Source: Elusimicrobiota bacterium (GTDB lineage Bacteria > Elusimicrobiota > JBDRON01). Taken from it: a stretch of 64,000 nucleotides of DNA. The stretch is from positions 19,377 to 83,376 of the forward strand of contig JBDRON010000056.1 in the NCBI GenBank assembly GCA_043810025.1, read 5' to 3'. The notes under the pieces are model-generated. The model was not told where the DNA came from. It made no database searches and worked only from the letters and a program-made list of their open reading frames with translations. Position numbers and translations under genes: made by a program. Shown here one piece after another: positions 5,725-63,408 of this stretch (the stretch's first letter is position 1; every line of letters starts with the position of its first letter).

Positions 5725-6837
5725 ATGAATAGTACAGAAAAGTTGCAAACAGAGACGATGTATATTAATATGGGGCCGCAGCATCCTTCGACGCACGGGG
5801 TGCTGCGGTTGGGTTTGACTTTGGACGGAGAAGTCGTTACCGCGGCAGATCCGGACATCGGTTATTTACACCGGGGAATAGAAAAGCTGGCCGAGAAACG
5901 CAATTATTTTCAGTTTAACCCGCTGACTGACCGGTTGGATTATCTGGCCTCGATGTCCAATAATTTGGCCTATTGTTTAACCGTGGAAAAAATACTGGGG
6001 GTGGCCATACCGCCGCGGGCCCAGGTGCTTCGCGTAATTATGGCCGAGCTGCAGCGAATTGCCAGCCATCTGGTTTATTTTGGCACTTATGGGGTTGATC
6101 TGGGAGCCGTTACGCCCTTTATGTACGCTTTTCGCGACCGGGAAGTGATTGTCGATTTGTTTGAATCGGTTTGCGGCGCCCGTCTCACCTATAATTATAT
6201 CCGTATCGGCGGGGCGGCCGCTGATCTGCCGGAAGGTTTTGTTGAAAAAACAAAAATATTTATCCAATCGATGGGGCCGCATCTCCAGGATTATGACAAC
6301 CTGCTTTCCGATAATGCTATTTTTCTGGACCGAACCAAAGGGATCGGAATTATCTCTGGAGAAAAAGCGATCGCTTATGGCTTAAGCGGTCCCAATCTGC
6401 GGGCTTCCGGGATAAAGTTTGATTTGCGCAAAGACGAACCTTATTCCGGATACGACCAATATAATTTTGCCGTGCCGGTTGGGACCAGGGGTGATTGCTG
6501 GGATCGGTATTATTTAAGGATGTCCGAGATTCGGGAAAGTTTAAAGATTGTTGAACAGGCTTTGAACAAATTGCCGTCAGGCGAGTATCTGGCTAAGGTA
6601 CCGAAAGTATTGAAAGTCCCGGCGGGAGAAACTTATCAGCATATTGAGTCCCCGCGCGGGGATTTGGGGTTCTATCTGGTCAGTGACGGGACAGAAAAAC
6701 CTTACCGGCTGAAAATTCGGGCGCCCTCCTTTGTTAATTTGCAAATCCTGGGAGATATTATGCCGGGTGGAAAGATCGCCGACATCGTCGCTATTTTAGG
6801 CAGTATCGATATAGTTCTTGGGGAAGTGGATAGGTGA
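5725..6837 (+). CDS. nuoD: NADH-quinone oxidoreductase subunit D (49 kDa)
   Basis: 370 aa; NiFe-hydrogenase-large-subunit-like fold typical of NuoD (MYINMGPQHPSTHGVLRL...RAPSF). Confidence 0.93.
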   Translation: MNSTEKLQTETMYINMGPQHPSTHGVLRLGLTLDGEVVTAADPDIGYLHRGIEKLAEKRNYFQFNPLTDRLDYLASMSNNLAYCLTVEKILGVAIPPRAQVLRVIMAELQRIASHLVYFGTYGVDLGAVTPFMYAFRDREVIVDLFESVCGARLTYNYIRIGGAAADLPEGFVEKTKIFIQSMGPHLQDYDNLLSDNAIFLDRTKGIGIISGEKAIAYGLSGPNLRASGIKFDLRKDEPYSGYDQYNFAVPVGTRGDCWDRYYLRMSEIRESLKIVEQALNKLPSGEYLAKVPKVLKVPAGETYQHIESPRGDLGFYLVSDGTEKPYRLKIRAPSFVNLQILGDIMPGGKIADIVAILGSIDIVLGEVDR

Positions 6838-6865: not shown

Positions 6866-6955
6866 AGGTCATGAGTCATGGGTTATGAGTTATGAGTTTA
6901 TAAAGAATAGAGTCTTTTAATCACAAGACACATGACTCATAACTTGTGACTTATT
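6866..6955. repeat. Family B long palindrome (tandem-heptamer arms + conserved AAAGAATAGAGTCTTTTAA centre), copy B1
   Basis: Arms GTCATGAGTCATGGGTTATGAGTTATGAG / CACAAGACACATGACTCATAACTTGTGAC; lies between nuoD and nuoH. Confidence 0.7.
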
Positions 6956-9410: not shown

Positions 9411-9505
9411 GGTCGTGAGTCATGAGTCTTGGGTTATGAGCTTGAAAGGAATCGATTCTTTTAGACTCAAGACTCATAACGCATGACTCAGGACTTGTAA
9501 CTTGC
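9411..9505. repeat. Family B palindrome, copy B2
   Basis: GGTCGTGAGTCATGAGTCTTGGGTTATGAGCTTGAAAGGAATCGATTCTTTTAGACTCAAGACTCATAACGCATGACTCAGGACTTG; between nuoK and nuoL. Confidence 0.7.
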
Positions 9506-14517: not shown

Positions 14518-14527
14518 GGGAGTGTAT

Positions 14528-14650
14528 AGGAAATTAGAAGTTTGTTGAAGTGTTCCCCCTTTTGAAAGGGGGATGAAGGGGGATTTTAAAATATTGATAA
14601 AATCTCCCCTACCCCTCTTTTTAAAGAGGGAAAAAAACGTCACAGGTGTG
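14528..14650 (+). repeat. Family A triple-hairpin REP-like element, copy A1
   Basis: GAAATTAGAAGTTTGTTGAAGTGTT-CCCCCTTTTGAAAGGGGG-ATGAAGGGGGATTTT...AAATCTCCCCTA-CCCCTCTTTTTAAAGAGGG-AAAAAAACGTCACAG; three consecutive stem-loops; immediately downstream of nuoN. Confidence 0.7.
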
Positions 14651-15684: not shown

Positions 15685-15770
15685 GGTCATGAGTTGTGGG
15701 TCGTGGGTTGTGAGCTTAAAAGAATCGAGTCTTTTAATCTCAAGACTCATGACTCATAACCCATGACTTA
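15685..15770. repeat. Family B palindrome, copy B3
   Basis: GGTCATGAGTTGTGGGTCGTGGGTTGTGAGCTTAAAAGAATCGAGTCTTTTAATCTCAAGACTCATGACTCATAACCCATGACTTA; upstream of bamA. Confidence 0.7.
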
Positions 15771-27735: not shown

Positions 27736-27764
27736 TGTATATAACTGCGCATAATTAAAGGGAC
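27736..27764. repeat. left arm of a 29-bp perfect inverted repeat (TATATAACTGCGCATAATTAAAGGGACAT)
   Basis: Exact reverse complement found at 27958-27986; the pair flanks a 193-bp segment containing Family A copy A3. Confidence 0.8.
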
Positions 27765-27817
27765 ATCAGCAAAAGTGTCATAGCAACGAAAGCTGGTATC
27801 CAGAAAGTGTGATATAC

Positions 27818-27957
27818 AGAAATTTGAATGTTTGTTTTGCGTATATTCCCCCTTAAAAAAGGGGGACACAGGGGGATTTTGAAAATTAGAAATATTGTCT
27901 AAATCTCCCCTACCCCTCTTTTTAAAAGAGGGGAAAAAATACCACAGAACGAAACTC
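27818..27957 (+). repeat. Family A triple-hairpin element, copy A3 (inside the 29-bp IR pair)
   Basis: GAAATTTGAATGTTTGTTTTGCGTATATT-CCCCCTTAAAAAAGGGGG-ACACAGGGGGATTTTGAAAATTAGAAATATTGTCTAAATCTCCCCTA-CCCCTCTTTTTAAAAGAGGGG-AAAAAATACCACAG. Confidence 0.7.
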
Positions 27958-27986
27958 ATGTCCCTTTAATTATGCGCAGTTATATA
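27958..27986. repeat. right arm of the 29-bp perfect inverted repeat; contains the start codon of the downstream wHTH gene
   Basis: ATGTCCCTTTAATTATGCGCAGTTATATA; ATG 27972 (MRSYIVEK...) lies inside it. Confidence 0.8.
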
Positions 27987-30437: not shown

Positions 30438-32162
30438 ATGTATTCACGGTTAGCAAAGTATTTTCGGCCTTATTTAGCGCGGTTTTTGCAGGCGGTGGTC
30501 TGTATGCTTTTAGTTGCCGGCTTAACTGCTTTGTCAATGTGGATTTTGCGCGATGTCATCGATAAAATATTTATTGCTAAAAACCAAAAAATGCTGTTCT
30601 GGGTTGCCGGAGCCGTGCCGGCGATTTTTTTATTGAAAGCGATTTTCTCTTATATTCAAACTTATTTGATTGCTTATATCGGCCAGCAGATCATTAAGAC
30701 TCTGCGCAACGAATTATTTAATCATCTCCAGAAACTTTCCCTGGATTTTTACCATCGTAACCCCAGCGGCAAGATTATGGCCCGCCTGACCAACGATGTG
30801 CAAACATTACAGAATGCGATCACCCATGTGCCGTTGTATTTTATTCGTGACGGCTTTACGATAATTTTCCTGGCCGGGTTTCTTTTTTATCTGAATTGGC
30901 AATTTGCTTTGATTACGCCAATCGCGATTCTGGTTGCCGGCTGGCCGATTGTCCTCTTTGGCAAGAAACTGCGCAGTGTTGGCCGGCATGGCCAGCAAAA
31001 AATGAGCGATGTTTACACCTCGCTTCAGGAGAATGTCAGCGGGGTAATGGTGATTAAGGCTTTTAATATGGAGGATTACGAGCGGGAGAAGTTCACCCGG
31101 GAAAACCAGAACTATTTCAATATTGTGATGCGTTCCTTACGGGTGGAGGCGCTTTCCACTCCGGTTATGGAACTTATTGGGGCGGTCTCGATAACGATAA
31201 TTATTTTCTGGGGCGGCTGGGATGTAATTAAAGGGGTATGGACCGCGGGATCTTTTTTTGCTTTTTTGGGAGCTTGCTGGTCCACATATAATCCAATCAA
31301 GAATTTTGCCCAAATGAACAACAATGTCCAACAGGCTTTGTCGGCGGTGGAACGAATTTTTTCCTTGCTCGATGAGAAACCAAAAATCCAGGAAGTTGAC
31401 CATCCGATACAGCTGTGCCCGATCGAGCAGGAGATTCGGTTTCAAGATATCTGGTTTTCTTACTACCCTGGTGAATATATTCTAAAAGACATAAATTTTA
31501 TTATCAATAAAGGCGAGGTTGCGGCGCTAGTCGGCCCTTCCGGCGTAGGGAAAACCACCTTGATTAATTTATTGGCGCGGTTTTACGATCCGGTGCAAGG
31601 AGCAATTTTCATTGACGGTATCGATATCCGGCAAGCCGGCAAGAAATCGTTGTATGAGCAGATTGGGATAGTCACCCAGGAGACGATTCTTTTTAACGAT
31701 ACAATTTACAACAACATCGCCTACGGGCGCTGGGGAGCGTCGGATAAAGAAGTGGAGACCGCCGCTCAAATGGCTAACGCCCATGAATTTATTGGCCGGC
31801 TTCCCCAGGGTTATGGCACTTTTGTCGGTGAGCGGGGGGTGCTGTTGTCCGGCGGTCAAAAACAACGGATCGCCATCGCCCGGGCGATCCTAAAAAAACC
31901 TTCTATTTTAATTCTGGATGAAGCCACCTCCAATCTGGATACCGAATCGGAAAAACTAGTCCAGGAGGCTTTAGAACGGTTAATGGTCCGGCAAACCACT
32001 CTGGTAATTGCCCACCGTCTTTCCACGATCGCCCGCGCCGATAAAATAGTGGTTTTTAACCATGGCCGGATCGCCCAGATCGGCCGCCATCAGGAACTTT
32101 TAAAACAAGAAGGAATATACAAAAAACTTTTTGAACTCCAGTTTTCCAAAACCACAATTTGA
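30438..32162 (+). CDS. msbA: lipid A export ABC transporter permease/ATP-binding protein MsbA
   Basis: 574 aa; six TM + NBD with Walker A GPSGVGKTT, signature LSGGQKQRIAIARA, Walker B ILILDEATS. Confidence 0.85.
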   Translation: MYSRLAKYFRPYLARFLQAVVCMLLVAGLTALSMWILRDVIDKIFIAKNQKMLFWVAGAVPAIFLLKAIFSYIQTYLIAYIGQQIIKTLRNELFNHLQKLSLDFYHRNPSGKIMARLTNDVQTLQNAITHVPLYFIRDGFTIIFLAGFLFYLNWQFALITPIAILVAGWPIVLFGKKLRSVGRHGQQKMSDVYTSLQENVSGVMVIKAFNMEDYEREKFTRENQNYFNIVMRSLRVEALSTPVMELIGAVSITIIIFWGGWDVIKGVWTAGSFFAFLGACWSTYNPIKNFAQMNNNVQQALSAVERIFSLLDEKPKIQEVDHPIQLCPIEQEIRFQDIWFSYYPGEYILKDINFIINKGEVAALVGPSGVGKTTLINLLARFYDPVQGAIFIDGIDIRQAGKKSLYEQIGIVTQETILFNDTIYNNIAYGRWGASDKEVETAAQMANAHEFIGRLPQGYGTFVGERGVLLSGGQKQRIAIARAILKKPSILILDEATSNLDTESEKLVQEALERLMVRQTTLVIAHRLSTIARADKIVVFNHGRIAQIGRHQELLKQEGIYKKLFELQFSKTTI

Positions 32163-32383
32163 ACCGGTAACACCAGACCAGCCTCAACCTCGTCCCGATG
32201 CCCCTCTCCCCAGTAAGGGAAATTTTAAATGGGCTAATAATTTTGTTAATGGGTTAATAAATAGGGTAATATCGAAGTTGCTGCTTACCAAGAAAAAAAT
32301 TACTTTAATTGTCGTTAGTAGGGCAATTACACAACGTTGGTAGCCCAATAAATTGGGCAATTACTCTATTAAGGTAGACCACG

Positions 32384-32947
32384 CTAAATTGACTGATCGG
32401 TTAATTTTGGGATACCGAATTCTTTCTCTTTAATCATTTTTATATTTTTTTGGTTATCCCTGGAAAATATTTCAGTACTGAGCATAGTTAAACTAATTCC
32501 AAACATAATCATAAATACCGTGGCTATGTTAAAAAATTTCGCAGGTTTTGCTGTTATATTTTTCTGAAATTCGTGTTCAGATGTTTTCTGAAAAATCGGC
32601 AGGGTTAAAACATCAAATCCCAGACTTTGCCAATGAGGATAATCAATTTTTGCATATTCCAGATCGTCTTCCGAGCAGACCAGCAGCCCTCCCCGAATTA
32701 AGGACGGAGACAATTCTTCTAGTAATTGGGACACAAGATTCCATGGATTGGTCAGATAGACATAAACATTCTGACAGAATATGATATCCAATCTATTCAT
32801 TCGTTTTTTTTGGTGTTCATTTGTTATATTCAAAAACTCAAAATTTACCATTTTTTTAACTTTATCCTTCACCTGATAATATTCCGTTGCTTGGGGAAAG
32901 GGTAAAAAATATTCATTTACTATACTAGGCGGGTCAAAAAAGACCAT
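32384..32947 (-). CDS. CheR-like SAM-dependent methyltransferase C-terminal fragment with C-terminal TM segment (probably truncated)
   Basis: LDIIFCQNVYVYL and GGLLV motifs typical of CheR/class I MTase post-motif I regions; lacks a GxGxG N-terminus; AT-rich island. Confidence 0.3.
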   Translation of the reverse strand: MVFFDPPSIVNEYFLPFPQATEYYQVKDKVKKMVNFEFLNITNEHQKKRMNRLDIIFCQNVYVYLTNPWNLVSQLLEELSPSLIRGGLLVCSEDDLEYAKIDYPHWQSLGFDVLTLPIFQKTSEHEFQKNITAKPAKFFNIATVFMIMFGISLTMLSTEIFSRDNQKNIKMIKEKEFGIPKLTDQSI

Positions 32948-33598
32948 GAATTAATGAAAATTAGAGCAGCGATCGATTGGAGTTTTGTCGAAACTATGAC
33001 GCGTGAATTGTCTCGTGTTTTAATAGGAGTTTTATTTCATTGTAGATTCTTGTATCTTCTGTTTCGCCTGACAGTTTCATTGCCCAATCGAGTAGATATT
33101 TCTTATCCAGTTTGCCTGAATTTTTAATGGCGATACTTTCTGCATCGGCGATGTCTTTCGGTTTTCCGGGAATTATTTTCAGTAAAATCAAATCTTCAGG
33201 TGTGGGCAGATTTTTCTTTATTGAGAAATGTTACGATTTTTTTAAATACTTCAATTAAATTCATCTCTTTGCCTTTAACAGTAACTCATAACTTAAAGGT
33301 GTGTCTTTAATAAAATCACTTCCATGATGGTCGAAAAAAATCAACAAGGATTTTTGCAACTCTTCCTAGTTATTATACGCAATAGTTCAAGGATAGTAAA
33401 GAAATTTAAATTACAGAAATTTCCAGTTGTCCCTTTAGCAATATTGTATTACATACTTATTGTCGATGATAACTACGGATTGCTTCGTCACTTCGCTTCT
33501 CGCAATGACACTTCTGGCGGCTTTTCGAGCAGGAACTATGTCTGGCCCAGCTTTAAACTTTATAAAGTTTTACCGTATTTGACATTCTTTATAAAGTT

Positions 33599-34543
33599 AT
33601 GTATATTTTAAATATGGATATAAAAGAAAAACTTACTCTGATTAAAAGGTTGTCGAGGAAGACACAGGAAAAGCTGGCGGCTGAACTCGGGGTTTCTTTC
33701 CCGACGCTGAACAGCTGGATTAACGGAAAATCTGTTCCGCGCAAAGATGCGCAACGATTGATTGATGAGTTATACCTGCGTCTGATCGGACAGAATATAA
33801 TTCCTCAAACGCTGATTGAAGCAAAGAAGTTGGGAATATTAAATAAGCGGCTGGAGTATCCGAAAATTTTGCGCTTATTGCAAGACCGAAAAGATCTATA
33901 TGATCAATTTTTGCTTTCGCTAACCTATAATACCAACCGCATTGAGGGGAGCACATTAACCGAACCGGAAACGGCGGCAATCCTTTTCCAAAATGCCGCT
34001 CTGCCGGACAAATCCATTATTGAGCAGATGGAAGTAAAAAATCATCAGGCGGCTTTCCAATACATGATCCGGCATTTGGCTGGAGGGGGGGGAATTTCGG
34101 AAGAATTCATTCTTAGAATGCATGCTATCTTGATGAACGGGATCAGGGAAGACGTCGGACAGTATCGCCGGCACGGGGTGCGAATAGTCGGTTCTAATCT
34201 TCCGACTGCCAATTATCTGAAAGTGCCGGCGTTGATGCAAATCCTGATTGAGGAAATTTTTAAGGGTGAAAAAGATATCATCGGCTTGGTTACCCGTATT
34301 CACAGCCGTTTTGAGCAAATCCATCCTTTTTCCGACGGAAACGGTCGGATAGGCCGCTTACTGTTGACCGCGATGCTTTTAAAAGAAAACCTGCCGCCAG
34401 CGATTATTCCACAAGCGCAAAGACGATACTATATTCTCTACCTGAATCAATCCCAAACCCGGAATGATTATAGCCGTTTGGAAGATTTTATCAGCGATGC
34501 AATTCTGTCCGGCTATGATCTTTTGAACGAAAAATCATTGTAG
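33599..34543 (+). CDS. Fic/DOC-family protein with N-terminal HTH
   Basis: Fic motif HPFSDGNGRIGR; N-terminal HTH-like LSRKTQEKLAAELGVSFPTLNSWINGKSVP. Confidence 0.85.
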   Translation: MYILNMDIKEKLTLIKRLSRKTQEKLAAELGVSFPTLNSWINGKSVPRKDAQRLIDELYLRLIGQNIIPQTLIEAKKLGILNKRLEYPKILRLLQDRKDLYDQFLLSLTYNTNRIEGSTLTEPETAAILFQNAALPDKSIIEQMEVKNHQAAFQYMIRHLAGGGGISEEFILRMHAILMNGIREDVGQYRRHGVRIVGSNLPTANYLKVPALMQILIEEIFKGEKDIIGLVTRIHSRFEQIHPFSDGNGRIGRLLLTAMLLKENLPPAIIPQAQRRYYILYLNQSQTRNDYSRLEDFISDAILSGYDLLNEKSL

Positions 34544-34620
34544 GGGCAGGACAGGCTAAGGTATGAGCGGTAATGTGGATGCCTTTCTAAAGATGTTTTA
34601 GGATGTTTTTTAGTAACTAC

Positions 34621-34872
34621 TCAGGTACATGACCGCTCACAATTAACTGGAAACACAGAAATTTTAATGTTTGTTTTTTTTGTGTTCCCCCTTAATGAAC
34701 TTCTTATTTCCCAGTAGTTTTTTCTGAGGTGTTTCAAGCCTAAGCCTTCCGGCTTTTTTTTAGAGGTAAAAAAATCAATCGCCTGGCAAACTGACTCTTT
34801 GGCTTTCTTTTTACGTAAGTGGTCCAAATTTCGCAGTGATTTATCAAAAGACGGTTTAAATTCAAATCTCAT
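34621..34872 (-). CDS. RelE/ParE-family toxin-like protein, 3' end replaced by a partial Family A repeat (likely inactivated)
   Basis: MRFEFKPSFDKSLRNL...GLGLKHLRKNYWEIR matches RelE/ParE toxin N-terminus and core; the expected C-terminal catalytic region is missing, and the last about 15 codons are encoded by the Family A head sequence (34657-34695). Confidence 0.5.
   Translation of the reverse strand: MRFEFKPSFDKSLRNLDHLRKKKAKESVCQAIDFFTSKKKPEGLGLKHLRKNYWEIRSSLRGNTKKTNIKISVFPVNCERSCT
34657..34695 (+). repeat. partial Family A element (5' head only: AGAAATTTTAATGTTTGTTTTTTTTGTGTTCCCCCTTA), copy A9
   Basis: Matches the head of A3 (GAAATTTGAATGTTTGTTTTGCGTATATTCCCCCTT); embedded in the 3' end of the RelE-like ORF. 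Confidence 0.55.
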
Positions 34873-35129
34873 AGTTTAGCTAAGTATTCCTTCGCTTCTT
34901 TACCGGTTAAACAGGTTTTACCCTTTTGGTCGGCCAATTTTTCAATCTTTGACCACTCATCAGGGCTAAAGATAGATTCAAATTCCCACTCTTCCAAGAA
35001 ATGTTTAATTGCTTTAGAAATTAACCATGATTTGGAGCGTTCTTCTCTTTTGCAGAATTCATTAAATTTAATAAAAATTTCTTTGTCTAATGTTGCCGAA
35101 ATATGCACAGCATTACGCATAAAAACCAC
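34869..35129 (-). CDS. ribbon-helix-helix (CopG/Arc-like) antitoxin-like protein
   Basis: ISATLDKEIFIKFNEFCKREERSKSWLISKAIKHFL is RHH-like; 4-bp overlap with the downstream toxin-like ORF (antitoxin-first operon). Confidence 0.55.
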   Translation of the reverse strand: MVFMRNAVHISATLDKEIFIKFNEFCKREERSKSWLISKAIKHFLEEWEFESIFSPDEWSKIEKLADQKGKTCLTGKEAKEYLAKL

Positions 35130-35200
35130 CTCCTAGTTAGATATTAACATAAGTATTAACAAATATTAAGAAGTTTCTGGTCGTCTATTAAATTTTTTAC

Positions 35201-35229
35201 TTGACATTTGTTGATTGATTTTTTATAAT
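35201..35229 (+). promoter_or_regulatory. consensus sigma70 promoter TTGACA-17 nt-TATAAT driving the cobalamin riboswitch/cob operon
   Basis: TTGACA at 35201-06, exactly 17-nt spacer, TATAAT at 35224-29; a riboswitch follows immediately. Confidence 0.65.
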
Positions 35230-35236
35230 ACGGCTA

Positions 35237-35400
35237 GAATTTAAGAAACACTTCAGCCAGGGGAAGTCCGTGGGAATCGGACACTGCCCCGCAACGGTGA
35301 TTCCTTCCGCCATCAGGCGGATTGGATAAGTCCGGTCTACTGTCTGAAGCATAAATCCTAAAAAGTGTTTTTAGGATTGCCTGCGCGGGCGGGATGGGTT
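35237..35400 (+). promoter_or_regulatory. cobalamin (AdoCbl) riboswitch
   Basis: B12-box-like core ...AGGGGAAGTCCGTGGGAATCGGACACTGCCCCGCAACGGTGA... (the conserved ...GCCACTG... region appears as CACTGCC); 5' UTR of the cobO-btuFCD-cobCUTS operon. Confidence 0.75.
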
Positions 35401-35457: not shown

Positions 35458-36006
35458 ATGAACAATTCAAAAAAAAATATTCGAGGCCTGGTTCAGGTTT
35501 ATACCGGCAACGGGAAAGGTAAAACAACGGCGGCGGTCGGTTCGGCGATCCGGGCTTTAGGTCAAGGCTTAAGGGTCTGTTTTGTTCAATTTTTTAAAAA
35601 TGACAAAAAATTTTCTTACGGGGAGCAAAAAATATTTTCCCAGTTAAAAAATTTGGAATTCCATTGTTTTTCCCCTCATCATCCGCGGTTGGAAAAGATG
35701 GTCGATGATGCGGAAATCCGTCAGGGATGCCGGCAGGGAATGGAATTTATCAAAAATATTTTTCTGCGGAATAATTTTGACCTGCTGATTATCGATGAAT
35801 TAAATATTGCTTTGCGCGATGGATTTTTAAGCCCGGAAACGGTAATCGGCCTGCTCAAAAATAAGCCGGCAAAAATGGAAGTAATTATCACCGGACGGGG
35901 CGCGTCGAAAGAGTTGATGGAATACGCTGATTTAGTGACCGAAATGCTGCCGGTAAAACATCCTTATGATAAAGGTATCCCCTGCCGCAAAGGAATAGAA
36001 TATTAA
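35458..36006 (+). CDS. cobO: cob(I)yrinic acid a,c-diamide adenosyltransferase (CobA/CobO/BtuR)
   Basis: P-loop VQVYTGNGKGKTTAAVGSAIRALGQG typical of BtuR/CobO. Confidence 0.88.
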   Translation: MNNSKKNIRGLVQVYTGNGKGKTTAAVGSAIRALGQGLRVCFVQFFKNDKKFSYGEQKIFSQLKNLEFHCFSPHHPRLEKMVDDAEIRQGCRQGMEFIKNIFLRNNFDLLIIDELNIALRDGFLSPETVIGLLKNKPAKMEVIITGRGASKELMEYADLVTEMLPVKHPYDKGIPCRKGIEY

Positions 36007-37378: not shown

Positions 37379-37459
37379 TAGCCATTTTTGTGGTAGCCGC
37401 AACCTTTAGGTGCGTTTCAAATTATGCGCAGGCTAAAGCCTGCGGCTACCAAGTGATAC

Positions 37460-37560
37460 TGATGTTATGTGTGTTCCCCTTTTAGAAAGGGGGATAAGGG
37501 GGATTTAGAAAATAATTACTAAATCTCCCCTAACCCCTCTTTATAAAAGAGGGGAATAAG
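37460..37560 (+). repeat. Family A triple-hairpin element, copy A4
   Basis: TGATGTTATGTGTGTT-CCCCTTTTAGAAAGGGGG-ATAAGGGGGATTTAGAAAATAATTACTAAATCTCCCCTAA-CCCCTCTTTATAAAAGAGGGG-AATAAG; between btuC and btuD. Confidence 0.7.
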
Positions 37561-37578
37561 AAATGAGGTGCCTAACTA

Positions 37579-39457: not shown

Positions 39458-40513
39458 ATGGAAAAAGTGGAAGAAATTGTAGTGAAAATTGCCGGGCTTG
39501 ATTCGGATCTGCTAAGGAGGACACAAGAAAGGTTGGATAATCTTACCAAGCCGCCGGGCAGTTTGGGAAGGCTGGAAGAGTTGGCCAGGATGATCGTCGG
39601 AATGACCGGAAAAGCTAACCCCTCTTTGGACAACAAGGTTATTTTTACCCTTGCTGCTGATCATGGAGCGGCGGAGGACGGGGTCAGCGCTTATCCCCGG
39701 GAAGTGACGGCTCAGATGGTTTATAATTTTTTAAATGGCGGGGCGGCGATCAATGTTTTGGCTAAGCATGCGGGGGCGAGGGTGGTGGTCGTGGATCTGG
39801 GAGTGGCCGTCGATTTAAAACCTCATCCGGAGTTAATGATTAAAAAAATAAATTATGGGACAAAAAACATGCGCCAGGGGCCGGCGATGAGCCGTGGGGA
39901 AGCGATAAAATCCATCGAAGCCGGGAAGGAAATTTTTCAGGTGGCGGCGGAGAAAGGGATTGATATCGCCGGGACCGGAGATATGGGCATTGGGAATACG
40001 ACGGCCAGCGCGGCTTTAACGGCTGTTTTTACCGGCCGGGCTGTGGAGGATGTTACCGGCCGCGGTACCGGCCTTGAGGATCAGGCTTTAAAAAACAAAG
40101 TTGCCTTTATTGCTGAGGCGATAGGCTTAAACAAGCCGGATAAAAACGATCCGTTGGATGTGCTGGCTAAACTGGGCGGGTTTGAGATCGGGGGGTTGGC
40201 CGGAATAATTTTGGCGGCTGCTTCCCGAAGGGTGCCGGTGGTGATTGATGGTTTTATTTCCGGGACGGCGGCTTTGCTGGCTTATCAGCTAGAGCCAAAA
40301 GTTAAGGATTATCTGATCGCTTCGCATTGTTCGGTAGAAAAGGGGCATAAAATAATTCTTGATTTTATTGGTTTAAAACCGTTTTTGGATTTGAATTTAA
40401 GGTTAGGCGAAGGAACGGGAGCGGCCTTGGGCATCAGTCTGGCCGAAGCTAGTATAAAAATATTAACCCAAATGGCCACCTTTGCCAAAGCCGGAGTTTC
40501 CACAAAAAAGTAG
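39458..40513 (+). CDS. cobT: nicotinate-nucleotide--dimethylbenzimidazole phosphoribosyltransferase
   Basis: CobT family (KPPGSLGRLEELA..., GIGNTTASAAL, ...ALGISLAEASIKIL); AAGGAG RBS before ATG 39458 (track start 39374 is an over-extension). Confidence 0.88.
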   Translation: MEKVEEIVVKIAGLDSDLLRRTQERLDNLTKPPGSLGRLEELARMIVGMTGKANPSLDNKVIFTLAADHGAAEDGVSAYPREVTAQMVYNFLNGGAAINVLAKHAGARVVVVDLGVAVDLKPHPELMIKKINYGTKNMRQGPAMSRGEAIKSIEAGKEIFQVAAEKGIDIAGTGDMGIGNTTASAALTAVFTGRAVEDVTGRGTGLEDQALKNKVAFIAEAIGLNKPDKNDPLDVLAKLGGFEIGGLAGIILAAASRRVPVVIDGFISGTAALLAYQLEPKVKDYLIASHCSVEKGHKIILDFIGLKPFLDLNLRLGEGTGAALGISLAEASIKILTQMATFAKAGVSTKK

Positions 40514-40516
40514 TAG

Positions 40517-40590
40517 TTGTGGGTCATGGGTCTTGAGCTCAAAAGACTCGATTCCTTTAAAATCACAACCCATGACACACAACTCAGAAC
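40517..40590. repeat. Family B palindrome, copy B5
   Basis: TTGTGGGTCATGGGTCTTGAGCTCAAAAGACTCGATTCCTTTAAAATCACAACCCATGACACACAACTCAGAAC; between cobT and cobS. Confidence 0.7.
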
Positions 40591-41383: not shown

Positions 41384-41432
41384 GTGATGTGATTTGTGTT
41401 CCCTCTTTATAAAAGAGGGAATGAAAAAAATC
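41384..41432 (+). repeat. internally deleted Family A element (head + hairpin 3 only), copy A8
   Basis: GTGATGTGATTTGTGTT-CCCTCTTTATAAAAGAGGG-AATGAAAAAAATCGC. Confidence 0.5.
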
Positions 41433-43347: not shown

Positions 43348-43462
43348 TTTTGGGGGATCAGTTGTATTAAAATGTCCCCCTTTGATAAAGGGGGATTAAG
43401 GGGGTTGGGTTTTATATTTTTAAACTCCCCTAACCCCTCTTTAATAAAGAGGGGAATTAAAG
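43340..43462 (+). repeat. Family A triple-hairpin element, copy A5
   Basis: GAATTGATTTTGGGGGATCAGTTGTATTAAAATGT-CCCCCTTTGATAAAGGGGG-ATTAAGGGGGTTGGGTTTTATATTTTTAAACTCCCCTAA-CCCCTCTTTAATAAAGAGGGG-AATTAAAG. Confidence 0.7.
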
Positions 43463-47204: not shown

Positions 47205-47340
47205 ATTTCCTTCTTCTTTTGTTCCCCTCTTTTATAAAGAGGGGTTAGGGGAGATTTGGTAATTATTATTGTCTAAATCCCCCTTATCCCCCTTTAAAAA
47301 AGGGGGAAATTAGATTTTTGCTACACATTGAATTTCCTTA
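47205..47340 (-). repeat. Family A triple-hairpin element, copy A6 (reverse orientation)
   Basis: Reverse complement reads GGAAATTCAATGTGTAGCAAAAATCTAATTT-CCCCCTTTTTTAAAGGGGG-ATAAGGGGGATTTAGACAATAATAATTACCAAATCTCCCCTAA-CCCCTCTTTATAAAAGAGGGG-AACAAAAG. Confidence 0.7.
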
Positions 47341-60408: not shown

Positions 60409-60535
60409 GAATTCCCTTCCCCTTAAGGCTGGGTTTCCCCCTTTTTAAAGGGGGATCAAGGGGGATTTTACGACGATAAAAATCCTCCCTAACCCTCCTT
60501 TACAAAGGAGGGAATAACTAAAAAAACCGCGTTTT
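60408..60535 (+). repeat. Family A triple-hairpin element, copy A7 (compensatory stem-3 variant)
   Basis: ...TTT-CCCCCTTTTTAAAGGGGG-ATCAAGGGGGATTTTACGACGATAAAAATCCTCCCTAA-CCCTCCTTTACAAAGGAGGG-AATAACT; stem 3 reads CCCTCCTTT/AAAGGAGGG here versus CCCCTCTTT/AAAGAGGGG elsewhere. Confidence 0.7.
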
Positions 60536-63310: not shown

Positions 63311-63408
63311 AGTCGTAGTCTTGAGCCATGGGTCTTGAGTCTTGAGTCTTGAGTTTAAAAGAATCGATTCCTTTAAACTCAGAACCCATGACACATAACG
63401 CATGACCC
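63311..63408. repeat. Family B palindrome, copy B6
   Basis: GTCGTAGTCTTGAGCCATGGGTCTTGAGTCTTGAGTCTTGAGTTTAAAAGAATCGATTCCTTTAAACTCAGAACCCATGACACATAACGCATGACC; between the HK stop and the RR start within a minus-strand operon. Confidence 0.7.

Follow-up and report, generated by a model that had tools for sequence, protein, structure and literature searches.

The toxin–antitoxin pair and its neighbourhood

The window analyzed here, a 64-kb stretch (64,000 nt) of an Elusimicrobiota contig, carries on its minus strand two small, co-oriented and adjoining genes arranged as a type II toxin–antitoxin operon. The same pair is found in L001, an 898-nt NCBI contig that carries the closest relative of the toxin (P0001) and that was used as the reference for the locus comparison. 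The first gene (34869–35120) encodes an RHH (CopG/RelB-like) antitoxin of 83 aa, which was matched by Pfam RHH_1 above its cut-off (E = 5e-5; 23.6 bits, cut-off 20.5) and by NCBIfam RelB_like below threshold (18.4 vs 50). The mechanically called ORF covers 34869–35129 and opens with a GTG at 35129; translation probably begins at the ATG at position 35120, which matches the start called in L001 and has a GGAGG 8 nt before it. The protein shares 79 of 83 residues with its L001 counterpart, with no frameshift, at a dN/dS of 0.064 (small sample). The antitoxin gene is promoter-proximal, under purifying selection and intact, as the preliminary description of the locus had stated, and it is presumably still expressed and autorepressing.

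Three direct repeats of TATTAA(C/G)A are found between the antitoxin ribosome-binding site and the promoter of a divergent AdoCbl riboswitch (35142–35169, minus strand; copies at 35142, 35154 and 35164). With spacings of 12 and 10 nt they are placed approximately one helical turn apart and are, judging from the sequence, a plausible candidate for the RHH operator. A simple scan found no sigma-70 consensus on the minus strand. The riboswitch itself (35238–35379, plus strand; Rfam RF01482, 53.1 bits) has a perfect TTGACA-17-TATAAT promoter ahead of it (35201–35229), and the gene cluster behind it diverges from the toxin–antitoxin operon; by reading alone, its ORFs putatively encode a cobalamin adenosyltransferase-like protein, a BtuF-like binding protein and a permease.

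The second gene of the pair is a toxin-derived ORF (34621–34872, minus strand) of 83 codons and a TGA stop, with a non-homologous tail of 23 residues. Its ATG overlaps the antitoxin stop codon (ATGA, 4-nt overlap). Among 5.8 billion proteins searched, 15 homologues were found, all of 89–92 aa, which aligned only to residues 1–61 of the ORF (73% coverage). In this comparison (alignment A1) the window ORF tracks the family up to ...NYWEIRSS(L) and then diverges, while the relatives continue with RIIFRxxxDLxEFILAGxHDxIKxFLK, a block absent from the window ORF. An exhaustive profile search extended the family to 361 representative clusters, mostly of 89–94 aa, and the family profile matched residues 1–62 of the ORF (E = 1.7e-28). 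The preliminary description had proposed an alignment with intact homologues; none of the homologues found by the protein search or the exhaustive profile search has the C-terminus of the ORF (SSLRGNTKKTNIKISVFPVNCERSCT). A metagenome scan returned 245 loci of the family, of which the best 80 were essentially full length, and 66 of these best 80 loci encode a homologue of the window RHH antitoxin immediately before the toxin. No toxin family in Pfam or NCBIfam matched the window ORF.

On the 3' side of the pair, the window and L001 differ in gene content. In L001 the order is antitoxin, intact toxin and then the 3' end of a convergent ABC-transporter gene, with 67 nt between the toxin and transporter stop codons; this transporter end is 92% (amino acids) and 87% (nucleotides) identical to the window gene at 30438–32162. 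In the window, a block of approximately 2.4 kb that is absent from L001 (32181–34574) is found in between, comprising an HTH-Fic gene, a CheR fragment and further small fragments. As the pair abuts the transporter in L001, the block was either inserted in the window lineage or lost in that of L001. The HTH-Fic gene (33614–34543, plus strand; mechanical ORF start at 33599) was matched by Pfam Fic (2e-18) and HTH_3 (6e-6), and its translation contains the Fic/DOC motif HxFx(D/E)GNGRxxR as HPFSDGNGRIGR. The CheR-like methyltransferase ORF (32384–32947, minus strand; Pfam CheR, 3e-12) is a fragment, since only profile positions 98–173 of 195 are matched, corresponding to the C-terminal part of the SAM-binding domain.

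Both the Fic protein with its N-terminal HTH and the CheR-like fragment had been correctly recognized in the preliminary description, which had combined them with the toxin–antitoxin pair into one AT-rich island at about 32.3–35.2 kb. The comparison with L001 retains the island in the form of the 32181–34574 block and places the pair outside it. The AT-richness applies to 32.2–33.6 kb (GC 0.33–0.36) and to the toxin–antitoxin pair (0.32–0.39) but not to the Fic gene (0.42–0.47; flanks 0.42–0.50). A 65-aa ORF flanked by the CheR fragment and the Fic gene (32994–33191, minus strand) matched no family and looks like a gene fragment, and the block may thus be made up of remnants. Its left edge carries five short repeats of the GGGYAATWA type (32226–32375: gggctaataa, gggttaataa, agggtaatat, agggcaatta and tgggcaatta), which could be protein-binding or recombination sites.

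Fold of the toxin family and the residues lost from the window copy

The intact relatives were compared to curated sequence models, all of which remained below threshold: YoeB (5.7e-4), YafQ (2.9e-3), ParE_like (5.3e-3), TIGR00053 (2.5e-4; 21.6 bits against a cut-off of 87), and the HigB-like and RelE_StbE models. The matches to the RelE/StbE, YafQ and YoeB models were full length. A profile search of the PDB with the toxin family returned HigB at E = 0.032, and an hhalign comparison of the family with a sequence of E. coli YafQ was insignificant (E = 0.14).

By predicted fold, the family is RelE/ParE-like. The AlphaFold model of P0001 (pLDDT 90.6) has the b-a-a-b-b-b-b-a order of the RelE fold (b1 2–5, a1 7–14, a2 18–37, b2 45–48, b3 53–57, b4 62–69, b5 72–80, a3 81–89), and its top 50 PDB matches were almost all toxins of the RelE/YoeB/YafQ/HigB/ParE type. 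The best match was the archaeal RelE 3bpq_B (E = 1e-5, TM 0.69), and the structural neighbours of the intact relatives (TM 0.65–0.69) include, besides 3bpq, YoeB (2a6r), YafQ (4mmj) and HP0892/HP0894. According to the models, the intact family has a RelE/YoeB/YafQ-type fold, which the curated sequence models recognize weakly. As none of these reaches its threshold, the assignment to the RelE superfamily rests on the predicted fold, the sub-threshold matches and the gene context, and the family represents a divergent, uncurated branch. The gene context also resembles that of RelBE-type modules, with an RHH antitoxin encoded first, the toxin second and a 4-nt overlap between them. The pairing of an RHH antitoxin with a toxin of the RelE-superfamily type, as originally proposed, is thereby supported on both sides (RHH_1 at 23.6 bits against 20.5; fold of the intact relatives). 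The accompanying statement that the ORF has a good RelE/ParE N-terminus and core is true of the intact relatives by fold, but not by any curated sequence model. Since a common RelE-fold family (361 representative clusters) is without a curated model, annotation pipelines will miss both its intact genes and its pseudogenes.

Five residues are invariant in the toxin family (R63, F75, G79, H81 and L88), and all of them are located in or after the segment that the window copy has lost. The surviving 5' part of the gene (codons 1–60; 34692–34872, minus strand) covers b1, a1, a2, b2 and b3, with the elements taken from the P0001 model, and the window ORF is without b4, b5, a3 and all five invariant residues. 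The absence of the usual C-terminal residues had been noted previously and is confirmed here, with a catalytic role of R63 and H81 suggested by the family pattern. An AF2 model of the window ORF calculated from alignment A1 had a mean pLDDT of 58.7 and no beta-sheet, with residues 57–83 below 50. Unlike RelBE-type toxins, the window copy is a pseudogene, as the fold and the invariant residues, which are the features that matter, fail. Because the model of the ORF predicts no RelE sheet, its product is most likely non-toxic.

Comparison with the intact locus and composition of the patch

P0001 is an intact toxin of 91 aa that is 85% identical to the window ORF over residues 1–61. On the nucleotide level, the homology between the window and L001 spans the antitoxin and toxin codons 1–60 (160 of 181 nt identical), ends at 34692, and restarts at 34612 to continue through 34575 (35 of 38 nt, collinear with L001 529–566). 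The restarted homology comprises a remnant of the original toxin 3' end (34587–34612, minus strand), reading K N I L K H L and a TAG stop (34587–34589) out of frame and beyond the extant stop codon, followed by a 12-nt spacer conserved with L001 (34575–34586). The toxin 3' end was therefore not overwritten by a repeat, as first described: its last seven codons, stop and spacer survive out of frame at 34575–34612. Between the two breakpoints, L001 has 69 nt (460–528), encoding codons 61–84 with strands b4 and b5 and the invariant R63 and H81, and the window has 79 nt (34613–34691). Both flanks of this patch are collinear with L001 in the right order and orientation. By this alignment, the toxin lesion is an internal replacement of 69 nt by 79 nt. 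The net gain of 10 nt shifts the frame, which results in the unrelated 23-residue tail and a premature TGA at 34621–34623 and leaves the true 3' end out of frame.

The 79 nt consist of a 37-nt filler (34613–34649), here termed X, and the head of a repeat designated Family A, whose similarity in total covers 46 nt (34650–34695). Family A is a multi-copy palindromic element with a core of approximately 95 nt and two hairpins. Full copies are found at 14540–14648, 27828–27947, 37456–37570, 43371–43460, 47210–47310 (minus strand) and 60431–60526, and a partial one at 41401; all copies other than that in the toxin are intergenic. A 5' head (ACAGAAATTTnAATGTTTGTT...GTGTTCCCCC) is common to three copies, two of which start at 14519 and 27809 while the third is that within the toxin ORF. 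The latter is a truncated copy in plus orientation made up of the head and the first 9–14 nt of the core (GTGTTCCCCCTTAA), and is 83% identical to 27811–27856. When a head model was built from the two other copies only, 34651–34694 was its sole further match in the window (E = 3.9e-5), and the similarity is thus not a matter of chance.

The toxin copy ends at GTGTTCCCCCTTAA in the loop of hairpin 1, with approximately 80 nt (about 85%) of the 95-nt core missing. In agreement with this, its nhmmer match to the full family covers model positions 2–34 only, and the complete two-hairpin core is not present. On the minus strand the truncated copy encodes residues 60–74 of the ORF, which accounts for the approximately 15 final codons ascribed to the Family A head in the preliminary description; a further nine codons and the stop are provided by the filler. 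TTAA is found at both ends of the head segment (34643–34646 and 34692–34695), and the toxin sequence does not continue beyond. The head of the toxin copy carries its own stem (GGAAACAC/GTGTTCC). Compared with the copy at 27811–27850 (GATATAC/GTATAT), the stem at 34649–34690 (GGAAACAC/GTGTTCC) differs on both sides with pairing kept, a compensation that hints at a selected hairpin. The RNA fold of 34540–34720 was unremarkable (z = −1.2).

REP, Correia and RUP-type elements are interspersed palindromic repeats of the REP/MITE-like kind. Family A resembles these in its short length (about 95 nt), its palindromic structure of two hairpins and its multiple copies, which apart from the one in the toxin are all intergenic; it differs in that the toxin copy is a fragment and in that very similar elements are found in several phyla. 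The full copies in the window showed no consistent target-site duplication, and no transposase tied to Family A was identified. Rfam contained no family for Family A or for the toxin–antitoxin region, with the neighbouring AdoCbl riboswitch as the only hit, and a literature search with the repeat sequence strings returned nothing relevant.

Two-hairpin palindromes similar to Family A (TTCCCCCTT..AAGGGGGAT.GAGGGGGATTT ... AAATCCCCCTA.CCCCTCTTT..AAAGAGGGG) were observed at nearly full length in metagenome-assembled genomes (MAGs; loci L009, at 2783–2894 and 6456–6571, L006, L015, L017, L018, L020, and L014, at 6020–6400), with three tandem copies of 120-nt period in L014. The MAGs are labelled Seleniivibrio, Deltaproteobacteria, Smithellaceae, Gammaproteobacteria, Nitrospirota and Desantisbacteria, a taxonomic spread that is a biased sample as the scan pattern itself demanded part of the Family A motif. 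Such cross-phylum conservation is unusual for a lineage-specific MITE. Within the window, the Family A copy at 27809–27947 is enclosed by a larger palindrome with 32-nt arms (27738–27769 and 27955–27986; 97% complementary), and the entire stretch 27738–27986 may be of nested or composite nature. Another family of interspersed repeats, with GAGTC/GGGTC-rich arms around AAAAGAATCGAnTCTTTTAA, has 4–5 copies in both orientations (6871–6950, 9445–9496, 15688–15767, 40511–40590 and 63327–63406).

Filler X (AGTAACTACTCAGGTACATGACCGCTCACAATTAACT(G)) separates the toxin 3' remnant from the repeat head. It has no second copy within the 64-kb window, is not homologous to L001 in the DNA alignment, gave no match to the profile of the toxin family in any reading frame, and was absent from all 19 scattered MAG loci returned by a genome-collection scan for the head and hairpin. 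A 13-nt inverted match between 34564–34576 and 34627–34639 is at chance level (E about 5). We also considered X as a diverged remnant of the toxin, since the remnant frame reads ...IVSGH..., similar to LVGSH. This was rejected: the profile is blank there, the apparent match is partly encoded by the head, and X is unalignable between flanks that are 88–92% identical to L001. The right junction of the block absent from L001 (34574/34575) is 12 nt past the original stop codon of the toxin and 38 nt away from the patch, and the gain or loss of the block and the patching of the toxin may be linked.

Proposed origin of the patch and decay of the operon

In the reading that we consider very likely, the locus is a chromosomal type II toxin–antitoxin operon in toxin-first decay, in which an internal segment of 69 nt was swapped for 79 nt containing a truncated Family A copy. 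For the patch itself, insertion followed by deletion is the most likely route, albeit a conjectural one. A repeat-bearing segment would have inserted near codon 84/85 of the toxin, and a hairpin-stimulated deletion would then have removed the rest of the repeat together with codons 84 to 61, thereby joining the hairpin-1 loop (CCCCCTTAA) to the toxin TTAA/ATAA at codon 60/61. The right junction is found in a TTAA that is common to the hairpin-1 loop (CCCCCTTAA...) and the toxin (TCATTAA in the window, TCAATAA in L001), a microhomology of 3–4 nt. Alternatively, a break in the toxin could have been repaired in one step by microhomology-templated copying of approximately 80 nt from a locus in which a Family A head adjoins X.

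A single transposition of a Family A element into the toxin gene, overwriting or cutting off the 3' end of the gene, would be a simpler explanation and agrees with the position of the head sequence inside the former toxin coding region and with the TTAA at both ends of the head segment. It also agrees with the finding that, in another member of the family, the homologous codon holds an unrelated element of 81 nt accompanied by a CTTAA duplication. A clean insertion would however have kept codons 61–84, and it is the loss of these codons and the incompleteness of the element, without about 85% of its 95-nt core, that disfavour simple transposition. Furthermore, 37 nt belong to neither toxin nor repeat, the real toxin 3' end survives, and the full copies in the window are without an obvious target-site duplication. 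With only a truncated repeat and 37 nt of filler present, simple repeat insertion does not explain the structure, and we regard it as unlikely. The toxin inactivation by repeat insertion proposed in the preliminary description therefore holds as inactivation, with internal replacement taking the place of simple insertion.

A second alternative is that the shortened protein is a functional variant kept by selection, e.g. as a non-toxic antitoxin partner or co-repressor or as a neo-functionalized small protein. Its 83 codons are still open and translationally coupled to the antitoxin via the ATGA overlap, and the surviving toxin 5' part has a low dN/dS (0.093 vs L001; dS 0.3–0.5 for the pair, a small sample). 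The low values for both the antitoxin and the toxin 5' part indicate that the divergence mostly accrued while both genes were constrained, and a low dN/dS is to be expected of an inactivation that is young relative to dS; judged from these rates, the lesion probably arose recently, although the value of 0.093 would fit residual constraint as well. As the tail is repeat-derived and found in no homologue, and as the ORF has lost half of the sheet and fails to fold in the model, a selected function of the shortened protein seems very improbable. Equally hard to credit is an assembly artefact (repeat-induced mis-assembly or a strain mixture, with an intact toxin in the real genome), for which the apparently metagenome-type source, the multi-copy nature of Family A and an exact-sequence look-up that matched none of four window proteins (the antitoxin, two Fic start variants and the 182-aa ORF at 35458–36006) could be cited, but which would normally give something other than a patch of partial repeat and unique sequence between two flanks collinear with the ortholog in correct order and orientation.

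Toxin-first decay thus remains the preferred reading, and in this respect the locus is an ordinary example of a process that is already well documented. Orphan antitoxins of Klebsiella are reportedly an example of eroded toxin–antitoxin loci with retained antitoxins. The window locus shares with such loci the truncated toxin, the intact antitoxin and a neighbourhood conserved with a relative that holds the intact pair; it differs in that its lesion is an internal replacement involving part of a palindromic repeat, rather than a point mutation or a plain deletion. In Photorhabdus, truncated toxin ORFs are the commonest defect, being found in most of the non-functional predicted toxin–antitoxin systems, and the toxin is usually inactivated before the antitoxin is lost (PMC13617665). 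The current understanding of toxin–antitoxin biology is unchanged by the present locus. It does offer a base-pair-resolved view of toxin-first erosion in a chromosomal module with the intact ortholog alongside, and it indicates that interspersed palindromic repeats can participate in this decay. What remains of most interest is the nature of the Family A-like palindromes and the coincidence that two interruptions arose independently at one and the same codon of the toxin.

Other members of the toxin family are truncated, frameshifted or interrupted after residues 59–63, examples being P0131, which has an internal deletion, and P0041, which has an insertion of 81 nt in frame; decay thus recurs in this family. 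Small hairpin elements might enter these genes repeatedly at the b3–b4 loop codons (TTAA/CTTAA, residues 60–62), a speculative proposition to which we attach a low probability; if true, it would imply that palindromic mini-elements target this sequence specifically or that selection favours this route of disarming the toxins. The insertion in P0041 (118 aa; L101 1684–1765, also present in L102) is a GC-rich hairpin flanked by a CTTAA duplication. It is found at the codon homologous to the window junction (residues 61/62), and the two junctions agree to within 1–2 nt. The antitoxin encoded upstream in L101 is of the MazE/AbrB type, not RHH.
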